DNA from: an uncultured Acidobacteriota bacterium
GTDB taxonomy: Bacteria > Acidobacteriota > JAQAZP01
NCBI GenBank assembly: GCA_963836075.1
Contig: CAWIIB010000001.1
Coordinates: 992,001 to 1,056,000, forward strand
Direction: 5' to 3'
Length of the DNA stretch: 64,000 bases
A model generated the notes under the pieces. The model worked only from the letters and a program-made list of their open reading frames with translations. It was not told where the DNA came from and searched no databases. This document shows positions 34,688 to 42,589 of this stretch, one piece after another. Made by a program: the position numbers and the translations under genes. Position 1 is the first letter of the stretch. Each line of letters starts with the position of its first letter.

Positions 34688-34725
34688 AAACGGCCGCGGT
34701 GCTCCGGCGCCGCGGCCGTTTTTTT
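34688..34725 (+). terminator. Intrinsic terminator of PFOR
   Basis: AAACGGCCGCGGTGC..GCGCCGCGGCCGTTT stem plus T7. Confidence 0.85.
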
Positions 34726-34741
34726 ATGCAGAAAACCGACC

Positions 34742-35236
34742 TCAGGAAGGGGAGAGCCAAAGGCCGAGGTGGATCAGGGGGACAAGCAGGAGCCGGGACA
34801 GGCGGTGGGAGAGCATACCCAGGCGGCCCAGCCGTCCCGCCAGCGGATTGACCCAGGTCCAGGGACGGCGATGCAGCAGGAGCGTGTGCTCCGGGCCCAG
34901 GATGGCGGTCACCCGGCCGAGCATCATCTCCGAAGGGACCCATGACCAGGCCCGGGAGTTGTCCCCTTTCTGGCAGCAGGGGCGGCTGCCGTCGGCGGCC
35001 GCCCGGGACATCAGCAAGCGGTGAACCACCACCGTCTCGCCCTGGCGCAGGGCAATGATGTCGCCGCAGCGGAGCCGCTCCGGGGAGATCGGCTGAATGG
35101 TGACCCGGTCGCCGGGGGAGGCCACCGGCACCATGCTGCGCCCCTCCAGACGGAGAGTGAACTCCTGCCGGCTGTGCCGCCAGAGGTCCAGCACGGCGGC
35201 GGTCACCGGCAGCCCGGGTGCTCCCTTTTCCCCCAC
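34742..35236 (-). CDS. S24/S26 signal-peptidase-like protein without N-terminal membrane anchor
   Basis: GRSMVP (Ser nucleophile), GD boxes, VVHRL, KGDN, as in S26B/SipW-type enzymes. Confidence 0.82.
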   Translation of the reverse strand: MGEKGAPGLPVTAAVLDLWRHSRQEFTLRLEGRSMVPVASPGDRVTIQPISPERLRCGDIIALRQGETVVVHRLLMSRAAADGSRPCCQKGDNSRAWSWVPSEMMLGRVTAILGPEHTLLLHRRPWTWVNPLAGRLGRLGMLSHRLSRLLLVPLIHLGLWLSPS

Positions 35237-35240
35237 CTGC

Positions 35241-37985
35241 TCACTCCCACGATTTGAGCCGCGAGGCCGGGTCTCCCAGAAGGGTGAACATGCTGACCAT
35301 CACATCGGTGGCGCCCAGAGCATGCGCGGCCACCTTGGCCTCGGTGACAATGACACCGAGACGGTCCTCCCCTTCATCAAAGATCAACGAGAAGATTTCC
35401 GGGGCCAGGAGATCCTGTTCCCAGGTGTAGCTCAGCCCACTGGGCGAGAAGCATCCGAACCCGCCGCCCAGTTCCGCAGTCGCCAGCTCCTCGGCCAGAC
35501 AATAGTAGAACGGATGCGAGAAATAGCCGTTGAGACAGGTCATGGTGAGCACGAAGGTCAGGGCGTCCTCGTTACTCAGCGACGCCACGTCGGCCGAGCG
35601 GAACATATACTCGCCGGCCCAGCCGGTCACCGACCCGTGGCCGTTGTAGTGGACGATGATCTCACCGATGTTGAAGCCCCGGACAATGTCTTCCGTGGCA
35701 TCGTCCACCACGCCGTACTGGGAGAGATACACCCGGCCAGGCACCATCCCATTGGGCAGCATGGCCAGCAGCGTCTCGTTCAGCGACTCGAAGACCGGCT
35801 CGTCGTCAGCGATAAAGAGGGCACGGGCGGGCACCGCTGCCGTCGATTGCTCGTGGGCCAGCAGCCGGGCCACCATGCGCCCGGCCATATCCAGATCGCT
35901 GGCCGGCAGCCGCCCGATACACATCTCCGGCAGGACATCGTCGCCTTCCACACAGACATACCAGTTGTCGTCCGGCGTCAGCCCCAGTTCGCTCAGTGAA
36001 AGGTGCACCGGCACCCGGCTCTGTTTTCCGGTGCCGAAATAGTCGAGGTAATCGGTGTTGGCATCCCCCAGCAGCAGAACGAACTCCGGGGCCGGGGCCG
36101 GCCACTCCCGGTAGGCATGGCCCAGGAAAGCCTGCAGCGCCGCCGGGTCGGCGATCCCGTGGTTGAAGTCGTCGTAGATATCCTCCAGGGCCACCGACAC
36201 GGCGCGGAGCCCCTGGCCCTGGCGATAGCTGACCAGCGGGTCGGCGGCCGCCAGGAACTCCCGCGGCGTGATCAGGATATAGTCAGCACCGTCACCGCCG
36301 GCCCAGAGCCCCGGCGATGTCCAGCCCTCCACCGATGCCGGGGACCGGAAACGGCCCGACGTCAGAGCCTGGTACCGTGCGGGGCCACCGGCGGTCTCTC
36401 TCCATGCCGCCGTGAACCCGCCTCCGGCCTCGCTGATGCCGACGCCCACCACGCGCTTCACGCTCAGATGGGAACTGATATCAAAGACGGCCACCTCCGG
36501 TTCCGAGAAACCGTGGACAGCAATGACCTGGGGGCCGGCCCCGGCAGTGGTGATCCAGAGCTGGTCGTCCATGGCGCGAAGACGTCTGCGGTAGTCCAGC
36601 TCGATCCAGTTGACGTATATGCTGTCCACCGCCGCCCCGGTGTCACCCGGGCAGTTCACGGTGATGGTATTCAACCCCTGGGCCAACAGATCGGAGGTGA
36701 TGGTCATCTCCTGGACAAAAACGTGGTCACCGTCCCAGAACTGGTCCCCCGCCTCGACCCCGTTGACCCGCACCCGGGTGTGATGGTTGGGATGCGGTGC
36801 CGCTGTGGAACGTCCCCGGCAACACACCCGGAGGGTTCCGTCCCACACTCCGGGAGCGAGGTTGGGAATTTCCAGCTGGTAGTCCATGGACGAGGGCGCG
36901 GTGAGCATGTCCCAGAACCAGTAGTCCTCCTCCGGCGCCCCCGGTGCCGCCTCCCACATCCGGTGGTTTTCCTCCACGTGCACGGTTTCAGTGGTGGAGG
37001 TGACCAGTCTGCCGCCGCCGGCGAGCGAACCATTCACCACATCCATCCGCTTACCCGGAGGGCCGTTCCAGTAGAGCCAGTAAACGTTGGTCCCGGTGAA
37101 GCTGCTCTCCATAGCCTGGCCGTAGAAAATGAGGCTCCCCTCGGGCCATGGCACGTCCTTTTCCGGGCCGGCCACCAGAACCGGCACTTCCCTTCCCCGG
37201 TTGAACAGTTTCAACGTGGCCCGGTCAATTGCATCCACCTCGCCGTGGCTCAAACCCGTGGAGAGCAGCGCTGCCACATAGTCAATGGCATGGAGGCCGT
37301 CTTCCTCCACCTCAATGCGCAACGCCCCGTCGCTTCGTGGGCCGGGGAGACCGACCAGTCCACCGGGGGAAGAAATGGCTGAACCCGTGCCTGGCGGAGC
37401 CTCCGGCGACGCCACAGCTCCGACCGCCGGCTGGACAAAGCTGAGCCGGACCAGCAGGCGGGTGGCACAGCGCAGGTTTCCAGCCGATGGATCCCACTGG
37501 AAGGGCTGGAATAGAACCCGGGCCATCCGGGCGCCACGCCGCACAGCCGGTGGGTCCACCGCCACCAGGGCGGCGGGATAGATCCCCGTGCCCCCGATAC
37601 ACCGTTCCGTGCCGCCGCCTTCCGGAGACAGGGTCAGGACGGGGAAGAGCCGCTGCAGCTGGTGGTGCTCGTAGTCCACATCGAGGATCTCGGCACTCAA
37701 TGCGCTTCCCTCGGGGAGCGGAATGGTGCAGCCAAGACGGGGCAATTCGGGCAGGCCGATATCCGAGGTCCTGGCCCAACCGTCCACCACCACCCGCCGG
37801 CATGGTCCGTCCGGCCCCGCGGTCGGCACCAGCCGGTAGGTCGGCAGGTTGAGTTCCAGGGTCATGCCCCGGGAGTCCCGGTCCCGCAGGTCAAGTTCAC
37901 CGGGAAGCGACAGGGCCGGGCCGGGTGTCAGAGCGCCGGCCGGCACCGTGAGCAGAAGCAACAGCAGAGTTAGTCCGTATCTCAT
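35241..37985 (-). CDS. Secreted C25 (gingipain-like) cysteine peptidase with propeptide
   Basis: Signal peptide (AGA-L); G.PELP propeptide; ADYILITP, FVLLLGDA, DNWY, IGRLPA, YNGHGS (His), TMTCLNG (Cys), LLGDPA. Confidence 0.88.
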   Translation of the reverse strand: MRYGLTLLLLLLTVPAGALTPGPALSLPGELDLRDRDSRGMTLELNLPTYRLVPTAGPDGPCRRVVVDGWARTSDIGLPELPRLGCTIPLPEGSALSAEILDVDYEHHQLQRLFPVLTLSPEGGGTERCIGGTGIYPAALVAVDPPAVRRGARMARVLFQPFQWDPSAGNLRCATRLLVRLSFVQPAVGAVASPEAPPGTGSAISSPGGLVGLPGPRSDGALRIEVEEDGLHAIDYVAALLSTGLSHGEVDAIDRATLKLFNRGREVPVLVAGPEKDVPWPEGSLIFYGQAMESSFTGTNVYWLYWNGPPGKRMDVVNGSLAGGGRLVTSTTETVHVEENHRMWEAAPGAPEEDYWFWDMLTAPSSMDYQLEIPNLAPGVWDGTLRVCCRGRSTAAPHPNHHTRVRVNGVEAGDQFWDGDHVFVQEMTITSDLLAQGLNTITVNCPGDTGAAVDSIYVNWIELDYRRRLRAMDDQLWITTAGAGPQVIAVHGFSEPEVAVFDISSHLSVKRVVGVGISEAGGGFTAAWRETAGGPARYQALTSGRFRSPASVEGWTSPGLWAGGDGADYILITPREFLAAADPLVSYRQGQGLRAVSVALEDIYDDFNHGIADPAALQAFLGHAYREWPAPAPEFVLLLGDANTDYLDYFGTGKQSRVPVHLSLSELGLTPDDNWYVCVEGDDVLPEMCIGRLPASDLDMAGRMVARLLAHEQSTAAVPARALFIADDEPVFESLNETLLAMLPNGMVPGRVYLSQYGVVDDATEDIVRGFNIGEIIVHYNGHGSVTGWAGEYMFRSADVASLSNEDALTFVLTMTCLNGYFSHPFYYCLAEELATAELGGGFGCFSPSGLSYTWEQDLLAPEIFSLIFDEGEDRLGVIVTEAKVAAHALGATDVMVSMFTLLGDPASRLKSWE

Positions 37986-39137
37986 GTGGTCTGTTCTTCC
38001 TCTTCGGGCCGGGTGGCGTCGAGCGCCAGTTGCCTGACCAACGGTTCCTGCTCCTCAAAACGGCCCACCGTCAGCCGGAAGCAGGAGATATCGCCAATAT
38101 GCTCGATGAGCTCCTTCATCCGCATAACGGACCCGGTATCCCTGCCCCGCCCGGATGAATCGACCCGTTGTTTTATTCCGGGCAGCAGGCCGAATGCCGC
38201 CTGGTGGACTGGTATGCTCTCCAGCGCCGGTGAACGTGAGAAATCGGGCCGGGCCGTCTCACCCCTGAACACGTTGAGCAGATGGTCCCGGTGTTCCTCC
38301 AGCAGGTCCGCAAGACGGACTGCCAGCCCTTGCCCCAGCGGGTAGTCCAGCCGGAATTCGGCCACATCGGTGAGCGGTCTGGTCACTTCGATTCCGGGGT
38401 GCAGTCGGACCAGGGCATCGAGCAGCGGCTCCCAGCCCGGCTCCCGGGCCCCGATCACCAGCCGGCCCATGGCCCTGGCTTGCGGCCCCGGATCGAGGAT
38501 GAGCAGCAGGGCCGGCGCTGCCGTTGCACCGCCTGTCGTTTCACCAGCAATGGCCGGCAGAGGGATCTTTCCACCCCTCAGCGCCACGCCATCGCTTACC
38601 GACTCCGCCGGCCCTTCTTCAGGAACCACCCAGAGACTGCGCGGAAAGGGGTGAACCCGGCCGGTCCGGCGGTGGACCGGACATATTTCATCGGAATAGA
38701 GGGTGAACCCCGCTTCGGCCAGGGCCAGGGCCATGGTGGTCTTTCCCGTGCCCGGCGGCCCGGCCAGGATCACCGCCCGGCCATGGCGCACCGCCACTGC
38801 CGCGTGGAGCAGCAGGTGATGGTTCAGGCTGTCAAAAAGTGTCTGGGTGACCCACTGCCAGGCATGGTGGACCGGGGTGGGATGTCCGTCGAGGGACTGT
38901 TCCCCGTGACGGTCAGCGCCGCCCGCGGTGCGCGGCGGCCCGGGAGAAGCTGACCCCCGGCCCCTCCGGCCCGTTGAAGCAAGCGCTGATCCGCAGGTCG
39001 GCGTCAACCCCGGACACAGTGGTGCGGAACGACCCGTAATCCCGGTCAAACAGTTCCAGCAGCTGTTCCGAATCGCTGGACAGGTCCAGGTCCGTTCCGA
39101 GAATGCAGTAGCGTGCCTGGTGCCGGTCCCGGATCAC
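37982..39137 (-). CDS. HprK-related P-loop kinase; frameshift near 38900-38960
   Basis: LLHAAVAVRHGRAVILAGPPGTGKTT...YSDE..V..PFPR. The plausible N-terminus starts at GTG 39137, overlapping the rSAM stop (GTGA), in a different frame that ends at 38913. Confidence 0.75.
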
Positions 39138-40534
39138 GACGCCCCCTTTTCCGCAGCGGCGCCGCGAGCGCTCTCCCGATGCAAAATACCGTCGAACGCT
39201 TCCCGGTAGGCCTCCTGGCGGTAAGGACAGAAGTCGTCCCGCTCCCAGATGCTCCCCCGATGGTCCAGAGCCTGGCCCATACAGCCGGCCTGGCACAGGT
39301 TCCGCCAGTGACAGGCGGCGCACTCGGCGATCTCCCGCCGCCGCCGGCTCAGAGCCGAGCAGGCCCCGGCCATGGCGGGGTGCTCCAGGCTGGCGCGGAG
39401 GCCGTCACGCAAAACGTTTCCCAGACGAAATTCATCGCGCATCAACAGGACGCAGGGATAGGCCGAGCCGTCCACGTCGGCCACCAGGGTCCGGCCCACG
39501 GAACACCAGATGCCATCCGGGGCGATGGCCGGGGGGACTTCCAGCAGGAATCCGCTCAGACCGCAGTTGACGCTCACCGCGCAGCCGCCGCCGCGCTGCG
39601 CCGCGGCCACCTGATGGTAGAACGCCTCTTGATCCTCCACCGTCACCCCGGCGCCGATGCTGGCCCAGTTGCCTGCCGCCCGGCCCCGGCGCCCCAGGGG
39701 CAGGAAGCGGACCTGGGGCACCCCCCGATCCTCGGCCAGCCTGATGATCGCCGACAGCTGGTGCACATTCTGCTTCATGATGGTGGTGGAGAGATTGAGC
39801 TGCTCCCCCAGGCCGGCCCGCTGCAGGAGTTCCACGGCGTGCAAAGCGGCGGCGAAACTCCCCGCAGCCCTGATCCGGTCATGGGTCGCCTCGTCGGCCC
39901 CGTCCAGGCTGACCTGGACCAGCGCACCGCTCTCGGCCAGGAAGGCAGCCCACCGGTCATCGATGAGCGAACCGTTGGTCAGCAGTCGGACGCGCATGCT
40001 CCCCGCGGCATGACTGATCAAATCCTTCACCCGGGGGTGCAGCAGGGGCTCGCCGCCGCTAATGGTCACGCTCCGCGCTCCCCCGGCGGCCGCCTCGTCG
40101 ATCAGCCGGCAAGCCGCCTCGAGGGGCATGTCCAGGGTTTCCCGGTCAGCGGCGTGGTAGCAGTGGACACAGGCATAGTTGCAGCGGTGGGTGATGTGCA
40201 GAAAAAGCGATTCCGCCAGCGGGACACGCCGCGGCGGGTCGAGGGCTGGGGAATCGAGAAAGCCGCGGTGGCGGAGCTCGTCGGCCACCCGGTCCACATC
40301 GCGCCGGGCCTCGTCTCCGCCGAGGCCGTAACGCCCGGCCAGCGCGGCGGCCGCGCCCTCGCGGTCCGCTCCGGCGCCGAGAATCCCGGCAATTTCGCGG
40401 GTGGTGGCGTTTACCACCAGCCAGCGGGGATCACAGCGGTGGAGCATGACCAACCGATCCCGGGAGCCTTCGGGCAAAGGGGTGTCGGGGTAAAAAAACC
40501 AGGAAGGTTCCGGTGCTGGGGAATGTCTGTCCAA
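39134..40534 (-). CDS. RRE(PqqD)-fused radical SAM/SPASM maturase
   Basis: N-terminal PqqD-like VVNATTREI...LAGRYGL..DEARRDV..L..RGFL; CNYACVHC; SGGEPLL; SPASM CSVG...GSAYPC...CAACHWRNLCQAGC...C. Confidence 0.92.
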   Translation of the reverse strand: MDRHSPAPEPSWFFYPDTPLPEGSRDRLVMLHRCDPRWLVVNATTREIAGILGAGADREGAAAALAGRYGLGGDEARRDVDRVADELRHRGFLDSPALDPPRRVPLAESLFLHITHRCNYACVHCYHAADRETLDMPLEAACRLIDEAAAGGARSVTISGGEPLLHPRVKDLISHAAGSMRVRLLTNGSLIDDRWAAFLAESGALVQVSLDGADEATHDRIRAAGSFAAALHAVELLQRAGLGEQLNLSTTIMKQNVHQLSAIIRLAEDRGVPQVRFLPLGRRGRAAGNWASIGAGVTVEDQEAFYHQVAAAQRGGGCAVSVNCGLSGFLLEVPPAIAPDGIWCSVGRTLVADVDGSAYPCVLLMRDEFRLGNVLRDGLRASLEHPAMAGACSALSRRRREIAECAACHWRNLCQAGCMGQALDHRGSIWERDDFCPYRQEAYREAFDGILHRESARGAAAEKGAS

Positions 40535-40584
40535 GAGCGATATATCCTGCCCGGGAATTCCATGGACCGCCCCGGCACCACGCC

Positions 40585-40755
40585 CTAGAAGATGGCGCAG
40601 GGTGCGGGGCTGCAGGCATGCGCGGGCCCGGCCTGCTCCAGGATTTCCACGCTGCTGTAACTGGTGATTACCGGTGATTCGTAGCGGATCCGAATTCCGG
40701 AATTTTTCCGGTCGCAGCGGTCCGGCTTCCGCGGTTCAGTTCTCTCCTCAATCAT
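40585..40755 (-). CDS. Putative RiPP precursor peptide (56 aa)
   Basis: MIEERTEPRKPDRCDRKNSGIRIRYESPVITSYSSVEILEQAGPAHACSPAPCAIF; GGGAG RBS; YxxPxI motif; first gene after the promoter and directly upstream of the RRE-rSAM. Confidence 0.8.
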   Translation of the reverse strand: MIEERTEPRKPDRCDRKNSGIRIRYESPVITSYSSVEILEQAGPAHACSPAPCAIF

Positions 40756-40839
40756 CTCCCTCTCCCGGTTACGGCCCCAGGCAGGTGTTGAACCCCTCTC
40801 CACAACATATCTTTTCGGCAGTAATGCGTTTTGACTGAA

Positions 40840-40868
40840 AATTTAACAACAACCCTCCGGGCTGTCAA
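40840..40868 (-). promoter_or_regulatory. sigma70 promoter of the RiPP cassette
   Basis: TTGACA-N17-TAAATT with TGn extension, just downstream of the mdh terminator. Confidence 0.75.
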
Positions 40869-40885: not shown

Positions 40886-40914
40886 AAAAAAACCCCCGCC
40901 AGGCGGCGGGGGTT
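40886..40914 (-). terminator. Intrinsic terminator of mdh
   Basis: AACCCCCGCC..GGCGGGGGTT stem with U7 on the minus strand. Confidence 0.85.
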
Positions 40915-42169: not shown

Positions 42170-42589
42170 TCAGTTCCCCAGGTCGACGATGATCCGGTCC
42201 TGGTCCAGCCAGGCGGGCCAGGTCTGCAGCGGCAGGGTGGCCGGACCGTTCAGCACTTTTCCGTCGAGGTCGAAGAAAGACCCGTGGCAGGGGCACTCGA
42301 ACCGCGTGACCGCCCTGCGGTAGGCCACGGTGCACTTCTCGTGGCTGCAGATGGGGCTGACCGCGCTGACCCCATCTTCCGCATGGCGGGCCAGCAGCAC
42401 CTCCCGGCCCTTGAGCCGGATGGTGATCGACCCGCCCACCCGCTTGAGCCGCTTGACCCGGTCCAGCGGGATGGCCACCTTGCCCGCCCGGGCCGCGCGG
42501 CCCGGCCAGACAAAGAGCATCGCCGCCAGCAACGGCAGCAGCCGCTTGAAGAACCCCCGTCGGGAAAATGGAGACCGGCTGTGGTTCAT
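42170..42589 (-). CDS. Tat-exported Rieske [2Fe-2S] protein
   Basis: SRRGFFK Tat motif; CSHEKC and CPCHGSFF boxes; GPATLPL. Confidence 0.9.
   Translation of the reverse strand: MNHSRSPFSRRGFFKRLLPLLAAMLFVWPGRAARAGKVAIPLDRVKRLKRVGGSITIRLKGREVLLARHAEDGVSAVSPICSHEKCTVAYRRAVTRFECPCHGSFFDLDGKVLNGPATLPLQTWPAWLDQDRIIVDLGN

Follow-up and report, generated by a model that had tools for sequence, protein, structure and literature searches.

A conserved radical SAM, kinase and protease gene cassette in an uncultured Acidobacteriota bacterium and the predicted maturation of a small Cys-containing peptide

We analysed a stretch of 64,000 nucleotides from an uncultured Acidobacteriota bacterium (assembly GCA_963836075.1, contig CAWIIB010000001.1, positions 992,001 to 1,056,000 of the forward strand; hereafter, the window), with emphasis on a set of five co-oriented genes encoding a short precursor peptide, a radical S-adenosylmethionine (rSAM) enzyme, an HprK-like kinase and two proteases. 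This gene set is real, widely conserved and uncharacterised, and its sequence features suggest that it matures a small Cys-containing peptide. The individual features, in window coordinates, are as follows.

34742-40868, minus strand: the complete set of five co-oriented genes (open reading frame [ORF] table).
40585-40755, minus strand: precursor peptide of 56 amino acids; homologous ORFs adjoin the rSAM gene in relatives.
39134-40534, minus strand: PqqD-radical SAM-SPASM enzyme of 466 amino acids, the PqqD part being a recognition element (RRE) for peptides that are ribosomally synthesised and modified post-translationally (RiPPs) (Pfam).
37982-39137, minus strand: HprK-like P-loop kinase, in two frames in this assembly (N-terminal part 38913-39137, C-terminal part 37982 to about 38950).
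38929-38931, minus strand: frameshift site of the kinase gene (comparison with the same-genus locus L017 and with contigs of three public runs).
35241-37985, minus strand: secreted Peptidase_C25 (gingipain/PorU-like) protein of 914 amino acids (Pfam, PDB profile matches).
34742-35236, minus strand: anchorless archaeal-type SpI-like (S26) peptidase of 164 amino acids, a probable leader peptidase (Pfam, NCBIfam).
40840-40868, minus strand: sigma-70-like promoter site TTGACA-N17-TAAATT, 5' of the peptide gene, predicted by pattern only (consensus scan, 10 of 12 matches).
34688-34721: 15-bp hairpin between the S26 gene and the convergent PFOR gene, terminator-like on both strands (terminator scan).
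40891-40914: hairpin flanking the cassette on the other side (terminator scan).

A first-pass annotation of this DNA had described the locus as a self-contained candidate RiPP system, and its account of the layout was confirmed. The ORF table contains the same five minus-strand genes at the same coordinates, and their tight junctions were all reproduced: 50 nt between the peptide and rSAM genes, a GTGA overlap between rSAM and kinase, an ATGA overlap between kinase and C25, and 4 nt between C25 and S26. The promoter proposed for the cassette was located by pattern match at 40868-40840, the terminators proposed on both sides correspond to the two hairpins listed above, and the position between two central-metabolism genes was recovered, with mdh and PFOR as the flanking genes. 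Likewise, Pfam and NCBIfam profile searches bore out the assigned domain identities (PqqD, Radical_SAM, SPASM, HprK-like, C25 and S24/S26). The description as self-contained holds in part: the five genes do stand together, but the genome carries a second, orphan precursor, no exporter was found among the five cassette genes (Pfam/NCBIfam, ORF table), and the loci of relatives include extra parts—a free PqqD, cargo genes with a fibronectin type III (FN3)-like domain, and an ABC ATPase, the latter following the cassette in loci L021 and L022.

Gene neighbourhoods also agreed with the grouping made in the first-pass annotation. Of 401 genomes sampled from the window's phylum, 9 (its own included) have an orthologue of the rSAM enzyme (E<=1e-40), and in this first genome sample the rSAM, kinase and C25 genes were syntenic in 9/9 loci; the arrangement is far beyond chance. 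The S26 gene was present in 7/9 loci (one contig stops before its position, and L020 lacks it), and a homologous peptide ORF adjoined the rSAM gene in 8/9, with tadA found upstream in place of the peptide gene in L020, a genome that has two peptide genes elsewhere. On three of the nine contigs, the source names given for the peptide were Acidobacteriota, Acidobacteria and Holophaga sp. A profile of the peptide was positive in 22/401 genomes (18/227 genera) of the window's phylum—a set that includes all nine rSAM-orthologue genomes—and in 14/401 genomes of the phylum to which the genome of L026 belongs. Moreover, the cassette occurred in metagenome-assembled genomes titled Deltaproteobacteria (L026-L028) and in another such Acidobacteriota genome (L025); these four loci were the orthologues among the 80 matches listed in an rSAM search with a five-row alignment, the remainder being generic rSAM enzymes. 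Further peptides of the family are named from Thermodesulfobacteriota and Desulfobacteraceae.

The window precursor consists of a variable charged N-terminus, a leader with Y25-x-x-P28-x-I and, further on, G43-P44-A45-H-A, and the core C48-S-P-A-P-C53-A-I-F; the ATG start that gives 56 residues is backed by MI[ED]ER N-termini in relatives. No NCBIfam or Pfam model matches this peptide. In an alignment of 11 precursors (A3), Y25, G43, P44, A45 and C48 are invariant, and searches with the corresponding profile returned 274 clusters at 90% identity, each of them labelled 'hypothetical' or left unnamed and without any Pfam domain, and 467 representatives at 50% identity (E<=1e-3), 73 of which reach 1e-10. 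Among 263 family members examined, 244 carry Y-x-x-P-x-[ILVFM] and then G-P-A, and the distance from Y to G is 18 in every one of these (244/244). At the putative -1 site, two residues past GPA, A occurs in 191 of the 244, T in 49, G in 2 and S in 2; the next residue is Cys in 228/244, itself followed by S (179) or T (22) within these 228, and a second Cys lies five residues on from the first in 143/244. The tail mostly spans 9-12 residues, and the core is short across the family, mostly C-S-P-x-P-C; the first ~20 residues are charged and vary in sequence. A K or R immediately precedes the conserved Tyr in many precursors and also occurs in their variable N-terminus, though the basic residue before Tyr is not conserved, being replaced by P-A-Y or P-P-Y in several. 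Taken together, the peptide reads as three parts: a variable head, a rigid leader closed by an A-x-[A/T] site like those of signal peptidases, and finally a short core. With 467 representatives, the family is large, unnamed and so uniform that a single heterologous expression could define its chemistry family-wide.

The second precursor of the same genome lies outside the window, at C9:1759686-1759919 on the plus strand (L154:10760-10922). It reads …GPAQACSPAPCAIF, has 54 amino acids and carries the core CSPAPCAIF; no maturation genes were found nearby on contig C9, and its 3' neighbour encodes an 822-aa subtilase/FG-GAP protein. A separate observation concerns L026:6753-7550 (plus strand), where the S26 ORF continues in frame into the precursor ORF with no intervening stop, giving a 265-aa open frame; the precursor keeps its own MMIDER start, and the arrangement may be either a real fusion or two genes sharing a frame by chance.

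The rSAM enzyme comprises PqqD (residues 29-93), Radical_SAM (114-266) and SPASM (347-409) domains in Pfam. Its C118-x3-C122-x2-C125 motif (CxxxCxxC) is invariant in 9/9 orthologues, as are seven C-terminal cysteines (C344, C361, C405, C408, C414, C418 and C436), such that the protein combines the hallmarks of rSAM/SPASM peptide maturases—CxxxCxxC, SPASM cysteines, an N-terminal RRE and an adjoining Cys-bearing substrate. We also scanned 49 peptide-centred metagenome loci with profiles of each cassette part. The rSAM-containing loci had GPAxxC in 15/15 cases, and a Cys after GPA occurred in 0/13 peptide rows of the loci with a kinase but without an rSAM gene (L153 being counted twice and L146 holding two peptides), the cores of which resemble QAGYIGDADNIVN or QAIYGNAPGPTGLN. 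This co-presence fits an action of the rSAM enzyme on the Cys. When 35 kinase rows were placed in a tree, the 10 without an rSAM grouped in one clade (support 100/98) nested among rSAM-containing rows, corresponding to a single change. Because this clade retains the peptide, kinase, C25, S26 and mostly a free PqqD, these parts are the constant core of the wider system. Free PqqD genes are found in relatives L018, L020, L023 and L024 and in many metagenome loci, while the PqqD of the window occurs only fused to the rSAM enzyme; the closest relatives of the free form are the lasso B1 protein TbiB1 and the HPr-rel-A PqqD model (33.2 bits, under its cut-off of 35). A hidden lasso-peptide reading for the rSAM-less cores was ruled out, as neither a cyclase nor a B2 protease is present.

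The kinase has HprK-related kinase A (HprK_rel_A, TIGR04352) as its best NCBIfam match, with 63.6 bits against a cut-off of 200 and over 67 residues only, and its profile matches HPr kinase 1KO7 (E 9e-7). An AlphaFold model of the same-genus orthologue (pLDDT 82.9) matched PEP carboxykinases (E ~1e-6) and the HPr kinases 3tqf and 1knx, and the Walker A residues G123, G128 and K129 plus D146 are invariant in 10 intact orthologues; the gene is intact in all 10 relatives examined. In the window, by comparison with L017, the gene carries a 10-nt insertion, and a stop falls at 38913-38915 in the N-terminal frame. Near-identical contigs from three public runs cover the frameshift site, where a change of +2 or -1 is their only difference from the window: X1 has two extra G, after 38929 and after 38931, with otherwise 0 differences over 193 nt, and X2 and X5 lack one base at 38931. 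Since both changes restore the kinase frame, the break most likely reflects an assembly error, or else a rare variant, and not decay. The first-pass annotation had taken it that the kinase would have to be repaired before use; its natural form is probably intact.

The S26 peptidase gave sigpep_I_arch as its best NCBIfam match (35.8 bits), together with a match to Peptidase_S24. Its residues S34, H72 and D92 are invariant in 13/13 sequences, the best PDB matches of its profile are SEC11C (E 1.6e-11) and SEC11A (E 7.7e-11), and no 19-residue stretch of the protein exceeds a Kyte-Doolittle value of 1.5; a hydrophobic anchor is absent. We also considered an N-terminal metal hook like that of nickel superoxide dismutase (NiSOD), freed by a SodX-like S26 enzyme. 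This candidate was dropped; the TIGR02754 (SodX-like) model gave 24.4 bits against 63.25, and the Cys spacing of the cassette core also differs from that of NiSOD. By analogy with LppS of the linear polyphosphorylated peptide (LPP) pathway of Bacillota (LppA/B/K/S/D/N; Popov et al., Nat Commun 2026, PMC13381572), the S26 protein is likely a leader peptidase. The pairing of two unrelated protease families, which the first-pass annotation had found unusual, is thereby half explained: the LPP pathway, as its main text describes it, has an archaeal-type SpI leader peptidase, so the S26 gene is no longer an oddity, but C25 still lacks an explanation.

This second protease, the truly unexplained member of the cassette, matches Pfam Peptidase_C25 with E 8e-72 over residues 569-910, plus Propeptide_C25, and has a signal-like hydrophobic stretch at its N-terminus, which reads MRYGLTLLLLLLTVPAGA. 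Its PDB matches include PorU (6za2) and RgpB (1cvr/4ief), with the GHG and TC motifs aligned, and H783 (of GHG) and C817 are invariant in 12/12 sequences. The best relative in both NCBIfam and PDB is PorU, the sortase of the type IX secretion system (T9SS), although the NF033707 model scored 201.9 bits and did not reach its cut-off of 420. The same genome is unusually rich in C25 paralogues, with about 22 of them on contigs C1, C7, C8 and C9 in open frames of 400-2100 aa; with the cassette profile, the cassette C25 scored 1366 bits against at most 157 for the other paralogues.

In L018, L021, L022 (two copies) and L023, genes for secreted proteins adjoin the cassette, and their products have in common a domain of ~100 residues with the pattern W-x-T-x-x-E ... 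G-F ... Y-Y-K-L-E-D-V-D ... H-G-P, for which no Pfam or NCBIfam model reaches its cut-off and the predicted structure (pLDDT 96.5) is a plain FN3 sandwich. A likeness of this FN3-like domain to the T9SS Por_Secre_tail, suggested by ESM Atlas (0.84), was not confirmed: Foldseek gave no specific fold match to T9SS C-terminal domains, and none of 35 FN3-like domains matched Por_Secre_tail in Pfam at E<=1. These proteins have signal peptides and differ in their passengers (subtilase, C39-like, beta-propeller-like). Two further observations concern their C-termini: at L132:6594-6702 (plus strand), an FN3-like protein ends in an IPTL-CTERM-like sorting signal (midcut-by-XrtH 30.4/45 bits, IPTL_CTERM 19.7/20.5), and elsewhere in the family the C-terminus consists of dockerin-like repeats or a short basic tail; the FN3-like domain is therefore combined with several anchoring devices.

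The pairing of these genes with the peptide extends well beyond the first loci. In the metagenome set, 23/35 peptide rows (the 35 with at least 900 nt of upstream sequence) are preceded on the same strand by an FN3-like ORF whose end lies no more than 700 nt upstream. The second phylum sample includes four genomes with 7-9 peptide copies each, and of the 23 copies examined in these four and related genomes, 13 have the FN3-like domain directly upstream, with the reversed order, peptide gene first, in other copies. Peptide cores are nearly identical among the copies examined within one genome; G437 and G583 each have one enzyme cassette in the stretches examined, with one peptide copy located at it. 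Moreover, a fusion lineage (P0195, P0220 and P0256; loci L170-L172) joins, in order, a signal peptide, a passenger, the FN3-like domain, Q-T-x-C-G-V, a hydrophobic helix, an R/K cluster and a C-terminal peptide module. An FN3-like gene lies inside the operon in L136, and a single 1445-aa frame in L123 holds an FN3-like domain together with C25. Within the window's phylum sample, the domain (E<=1e-10) was found in 93/401 genomes—19/22 of the peptide-positive and 74/379 of the peptide-negative ones—in a tally that includes one unpublished genome (G151) and related genomes that are not independent. The window cassette itself has no adjacent FN3-like gene, and three FN3-like ORFs lie elsewhere in its genome. 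These patterns point to a link between the peptide, C25 and the FN3-like surface proteins, and why a peptide-maturation pathway is tied gene by gene to secreted FN3-like proteins and a gingipain/PorU-like protease becomes a testable question. Separately, in close relatives of the window's organism (L110:3844-6954, plus strand, and G007:C60:472-813), an FN3-like domain is joined directly to the C-terminal half of a precursor (…ISAF|SSEEILEQVGPAQACSPAPCAIF) and continues without a stop into a subtilase, a frame that looks like a deletion or an assembly join.

On balance, we think that the cassette is probably an LPP-like pathway for the maturation of a ribosomal peptide with two additions, the rSAM enzyme and the secreted C25 protein. 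The LPP precursor has the leader YxxPxVLxHQxIxFET; LppB is a discrete RRE, LppK an HprK-like kinase that places several phosphates onto core Ser3, and LppS an archaeal-type SpI-like leader peptidase (S29/H68/D93) that depends on the RRE and cuts after T-1, and the core set further includes an MsbA-like exporter (LppD) and a nucleoside triphosphate (NTP) transferase (LppN), as set out in the main text of PMC13381572. Modelled on this scheme, four cytoplasmic steps can be proposed from homology and sequence pattern. The PqqD/RRE fused to the rSAM enzyme would hold the 56-aa precursor by its Y-x-x-P-x-[IV] leader motif, as lasso and LPP RRE homology suggests. The rSAM/SPASM enzyme would modify the core at the invariant Cys, most likely by a thioether or similar cross-link within C-S-P-x-P-C—a step suggested by the enzyme class and by Cys and rSAM being present or absent together. 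The kinase may phosphorylate a Ser or Thr, the best candidate being the one right after the Cys, by analogy with LppK on Ser3. Finally, the anchorless S26 peptidase, in parallel with LppS, would remove the leader after G-P-A-x-[A/T], a signal-peptidase-type site with small residues at -3/-1, to release a core of about 9-12 residues with Cys first. Outside the cytoplasm, the secreted C25 could then act on the exported peptide or on the FN3-like proteins paired with it in relatives.

Several lines of evidence argue for the LPP-like pathway: synteny; the retention of catalytic residues (rSAM Cys, S26 triad, C25 His/Cys, kinase Walker A and Asp); the regularities of the peptide; the co-presence of rSAM and Cys; the lasso-B1-like type of the free PqqD of relatives; and the LPP precedent itself, in which a precursor of this kind undergoes phosphorylation and cleavage by the trio of RRE, HprK-like kinase and SpI-like peptidase, according to the main text of PMC13381572. 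The RiPP-type reading of the first-pass annotation likewise gains from the conserved peptide family, its Y-x-x-P-x-[IV] leader motif, the rSAM motifs and the HprK/PEPCK-like kinase. Other findings weigh against the LPP-like pathway. In Pfam, the window has no discrete RRE, NTP transferase or exporter, all of them core parts of LPP as far as its main text describes them, and the kinase is frameshifted in this assembly. A Ser or Thr after the Cys is not universal (27/228 differ), and some rSAM-less cores contain neither residue, so that the kinase may instead target a leader position (T-Y-T-S-E-E) or a Tyr. The covariation of rSAM and Cys is statistically weak, since it traces to a single loss event on the kinase tree. 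Moreover, the peptide has no signal sequence, which leaves its encounter with the secreted C25 unexplained, and the 1:1 pairing of peptide and FN3-like genes is unlike what would be predicted for an ordinary diffusible natural product.

This pairing is the starting point of a different explanation, which we judge unlikely: a protein-sorting or ligation system in which C25, as a PorU-like transpeptidase, processes FN3-like secreted proteins and joins them to, or anchors them via, the matured peptide, itself a stoichiometric co-substrate or tag readied in the cytoplasm by the RRE, kinase, rSAM and S26. An FN3-like ORF upstream of 23/35 metagenome peptide rows and 13/23 genome copies, the 7-9 copies in some genomes (with near-identical cores and often a cargo gene alongside, among those examined), and the natural fusions, including the L123 frame with C25, would all be accounted for, as would the enrichment of the domain in peptide-positive genomes (19/22 against 74/379) and the relation of C25 to PorU. 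However, those same 74 genomes show that the domain is also common where the peptide is absent; related genomes are not independent observations; and the window cassette lacks an FN3-like neighbour, its three FN3-like ORFs lying elsewhere. The FN3 fold is generic and matched neither a specific T9SS C-terminal domain nor Por_Secre_tail, the PorU cut-off was missed (201.9 against 420 bits), and the topology of the fusions should put the peptide on the cytoplasmic side of the helix, away from the secreted C25. A bolder form of the idea, which we find quite unlikely, makes the peptide one half of a new surface-protein processing system: it would be produced in step with every FN3-like protein, receive its cross-link and phosphate in the cytoplasm, and be joined or exchanged by the PorU-like C25 transpeptidase. 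If this were true, protein sorting would draw its acceptor or tag from a RiPP pathway.

The product could also be an ordinary secreted RiPP, e.g., an antimicrobial or a signal, with C25 as an extracellular protease for a second leader-removal or tail-trimming step and the FN3-like neighbours as co-regulated bystanders. Two-step leader removal is known in other RiPP classes, LanP-type proteases acting in this way on lanthipeptides, and the signal-like N-terminus and intact catalytic dyad of C25, the K or R before the conserved Tyr and in the variable N-terminus of many precursors, and the ABC ATPase after the cassette in L021 and L022 are in line with such a scheme. Even so, we consider it very unlikely, as the basic residue before Tyr gives way to P-A-Y or P-P-Y in several precursors, the window cassette has no exporter, and bystander status leaves both the fusions and the copy-by-copy FN3-like pairing unexplained. 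Finally, it would be surprising indeed if the cassette were decaying and non-functional in this organism on account of its frameshifted kinase gene: the 10-nt insertion and the resulting stop at 38913-38915 speak for decay, but 3/3 runs covering the site restore the frame by +2 or -1, the other four genes are intact with their catalytic residues kept, and 10/10 relatives examined have an intact kinase.

Two side observations complete the survey. Outside the window, the same genome contains a second, different cassette of the same wider kind (C9:2122350-2127300, equal to L156), with a 944-aa protein carrying a ScmC/HprK-like C-terminal part, PqqD, rSAM/SPASM and an archaeal-type SpI-like peptidase; a 72-aa ORF upstream may be its candidate precursor. 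Within the window, a 139-aa ORF at 42170-42589 (minus strand) combines, as judged by eye, a twin-arginine-like N-terminus (SRRGFFKRL) with a C-x-H … C-x-x-H pattern of the Rieske type.

Among known systems, the SynChlorMet cassette, offered as an example by the first-pass annotation, shares with HPr-rel-A and the present locus the combination of an HprK-like protein, PqqD and rSAM/SPASM, and the HPr-rel-A models TIGR04352 and TIGR04353 are the best NCBIfam matches of the kinase and of the relatives' free PqqD. However, ScmC (27/125), ScmE (105/400) and ScmF (100.6/400) are all far under their cut-offs, so the cassette is not a SynChlorMet member; the HPr-rel-A scores (63.6/200 and 33.2/35) also fall short, and neither model set includes C25 or the present peptide family. 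Sactipeptide and ranthipeptide maturases (StsB, PapB) resemble the rSAM enzyme in their N-terminal RRE, rSAM core, SPASM domain with two auxiliary-cluster Cys sets and Cys-bearing core, yet no NCBIfam equivalog cut-off is reached—the best partial matches being mycofactocin maturase (138/265), GeoRSP (118/400) and StsB (111/625), with PapB at 79.9/340—and the cross-link here is a predicted one. PorU and the gingipains share the catalytic domain with its His/Cys dyad and a propeptide-like N-terminal domain; the window C25 differs from PorU in its sub-threshold score, in the absence of a detected Por_Secre_tail cargo domain and in its link to a cytoplasmic peptide-maturation set. Paeninodin-type phosphorylated lasso peptides have in common an HprK-like precursor kinase, a B1-type RRE and a Y/W-x-x-P leader motif (as described in the main text of PMC13381572), but the first-pass annotation was right that the cassette has no lasso cyclase: neither this enzyme nor a B2 cysteine protease was detected among its five proteins (Pfam, NCBIfam).

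The closest relative is the LPP pathway, and the earlier statement that no product of such a cassette had been characterised is superseded, since a closely related core has now been described (PMC13381572). As far as the main text of that paper goes, both systems have an S26 peptidase with a Ser/His/Asp triad (S34/H72/D92 in the window, S29/H68/D93 in LppS), an HprK-like kinase (frameshifted in our assembly, in frame in three runs), a lasso-B1-type PqqD RRE, a Y-x-x-P-x-[VI] leader (Y25-E-S-P28-V-I30 in the window) with a variable C-terminal core, and cleavage after a small residue—T-1 in LppA, predicted A/T here. In the same comparison, rSAM and C25 belong to the window cassette and not to LPP; the RRE is fused to the rSAM enzyme rather than discrete as in LppB; and LppN and LppD, i.e., the NTP transferase and the MsbA-like exporter, have no counterpart in the cassette. 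The leader here is 7 residues longer and ends in G-P-A-x-A, the LxHQxIxFET remainder of the Lpp motif is absent from this family, and the core, which holds two Cys, is ~10 residues long, where that of LppA has 45. Our literature search found no paper on rSAM, HprK-like and C25 cassettes, on SynChlorMet or on HPr-rel-A. Thus, the kinase/RRE/SpI core is already known, having been described in 2026 (main text of PMC13381572), and new relative to the literature searched are the added rSAM enzyme, the link to C25, the very uniform family of Cys-core precursors and the pairing with FN3-like genes. That paper calls LPP restricted to Bacillota, and its main text does not mention radical SAM, SPASM, C25, gingipain or Acidobacteria. 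The present cassette would add a radical-SAM step on an N-terminal Cys core, and it extends the kinase/RRE/signal-peptidase class of peptides beyond Bacillota to records titled Acidobacteriota, Deltaproteobacteria and Thermodesulfobacteriota.

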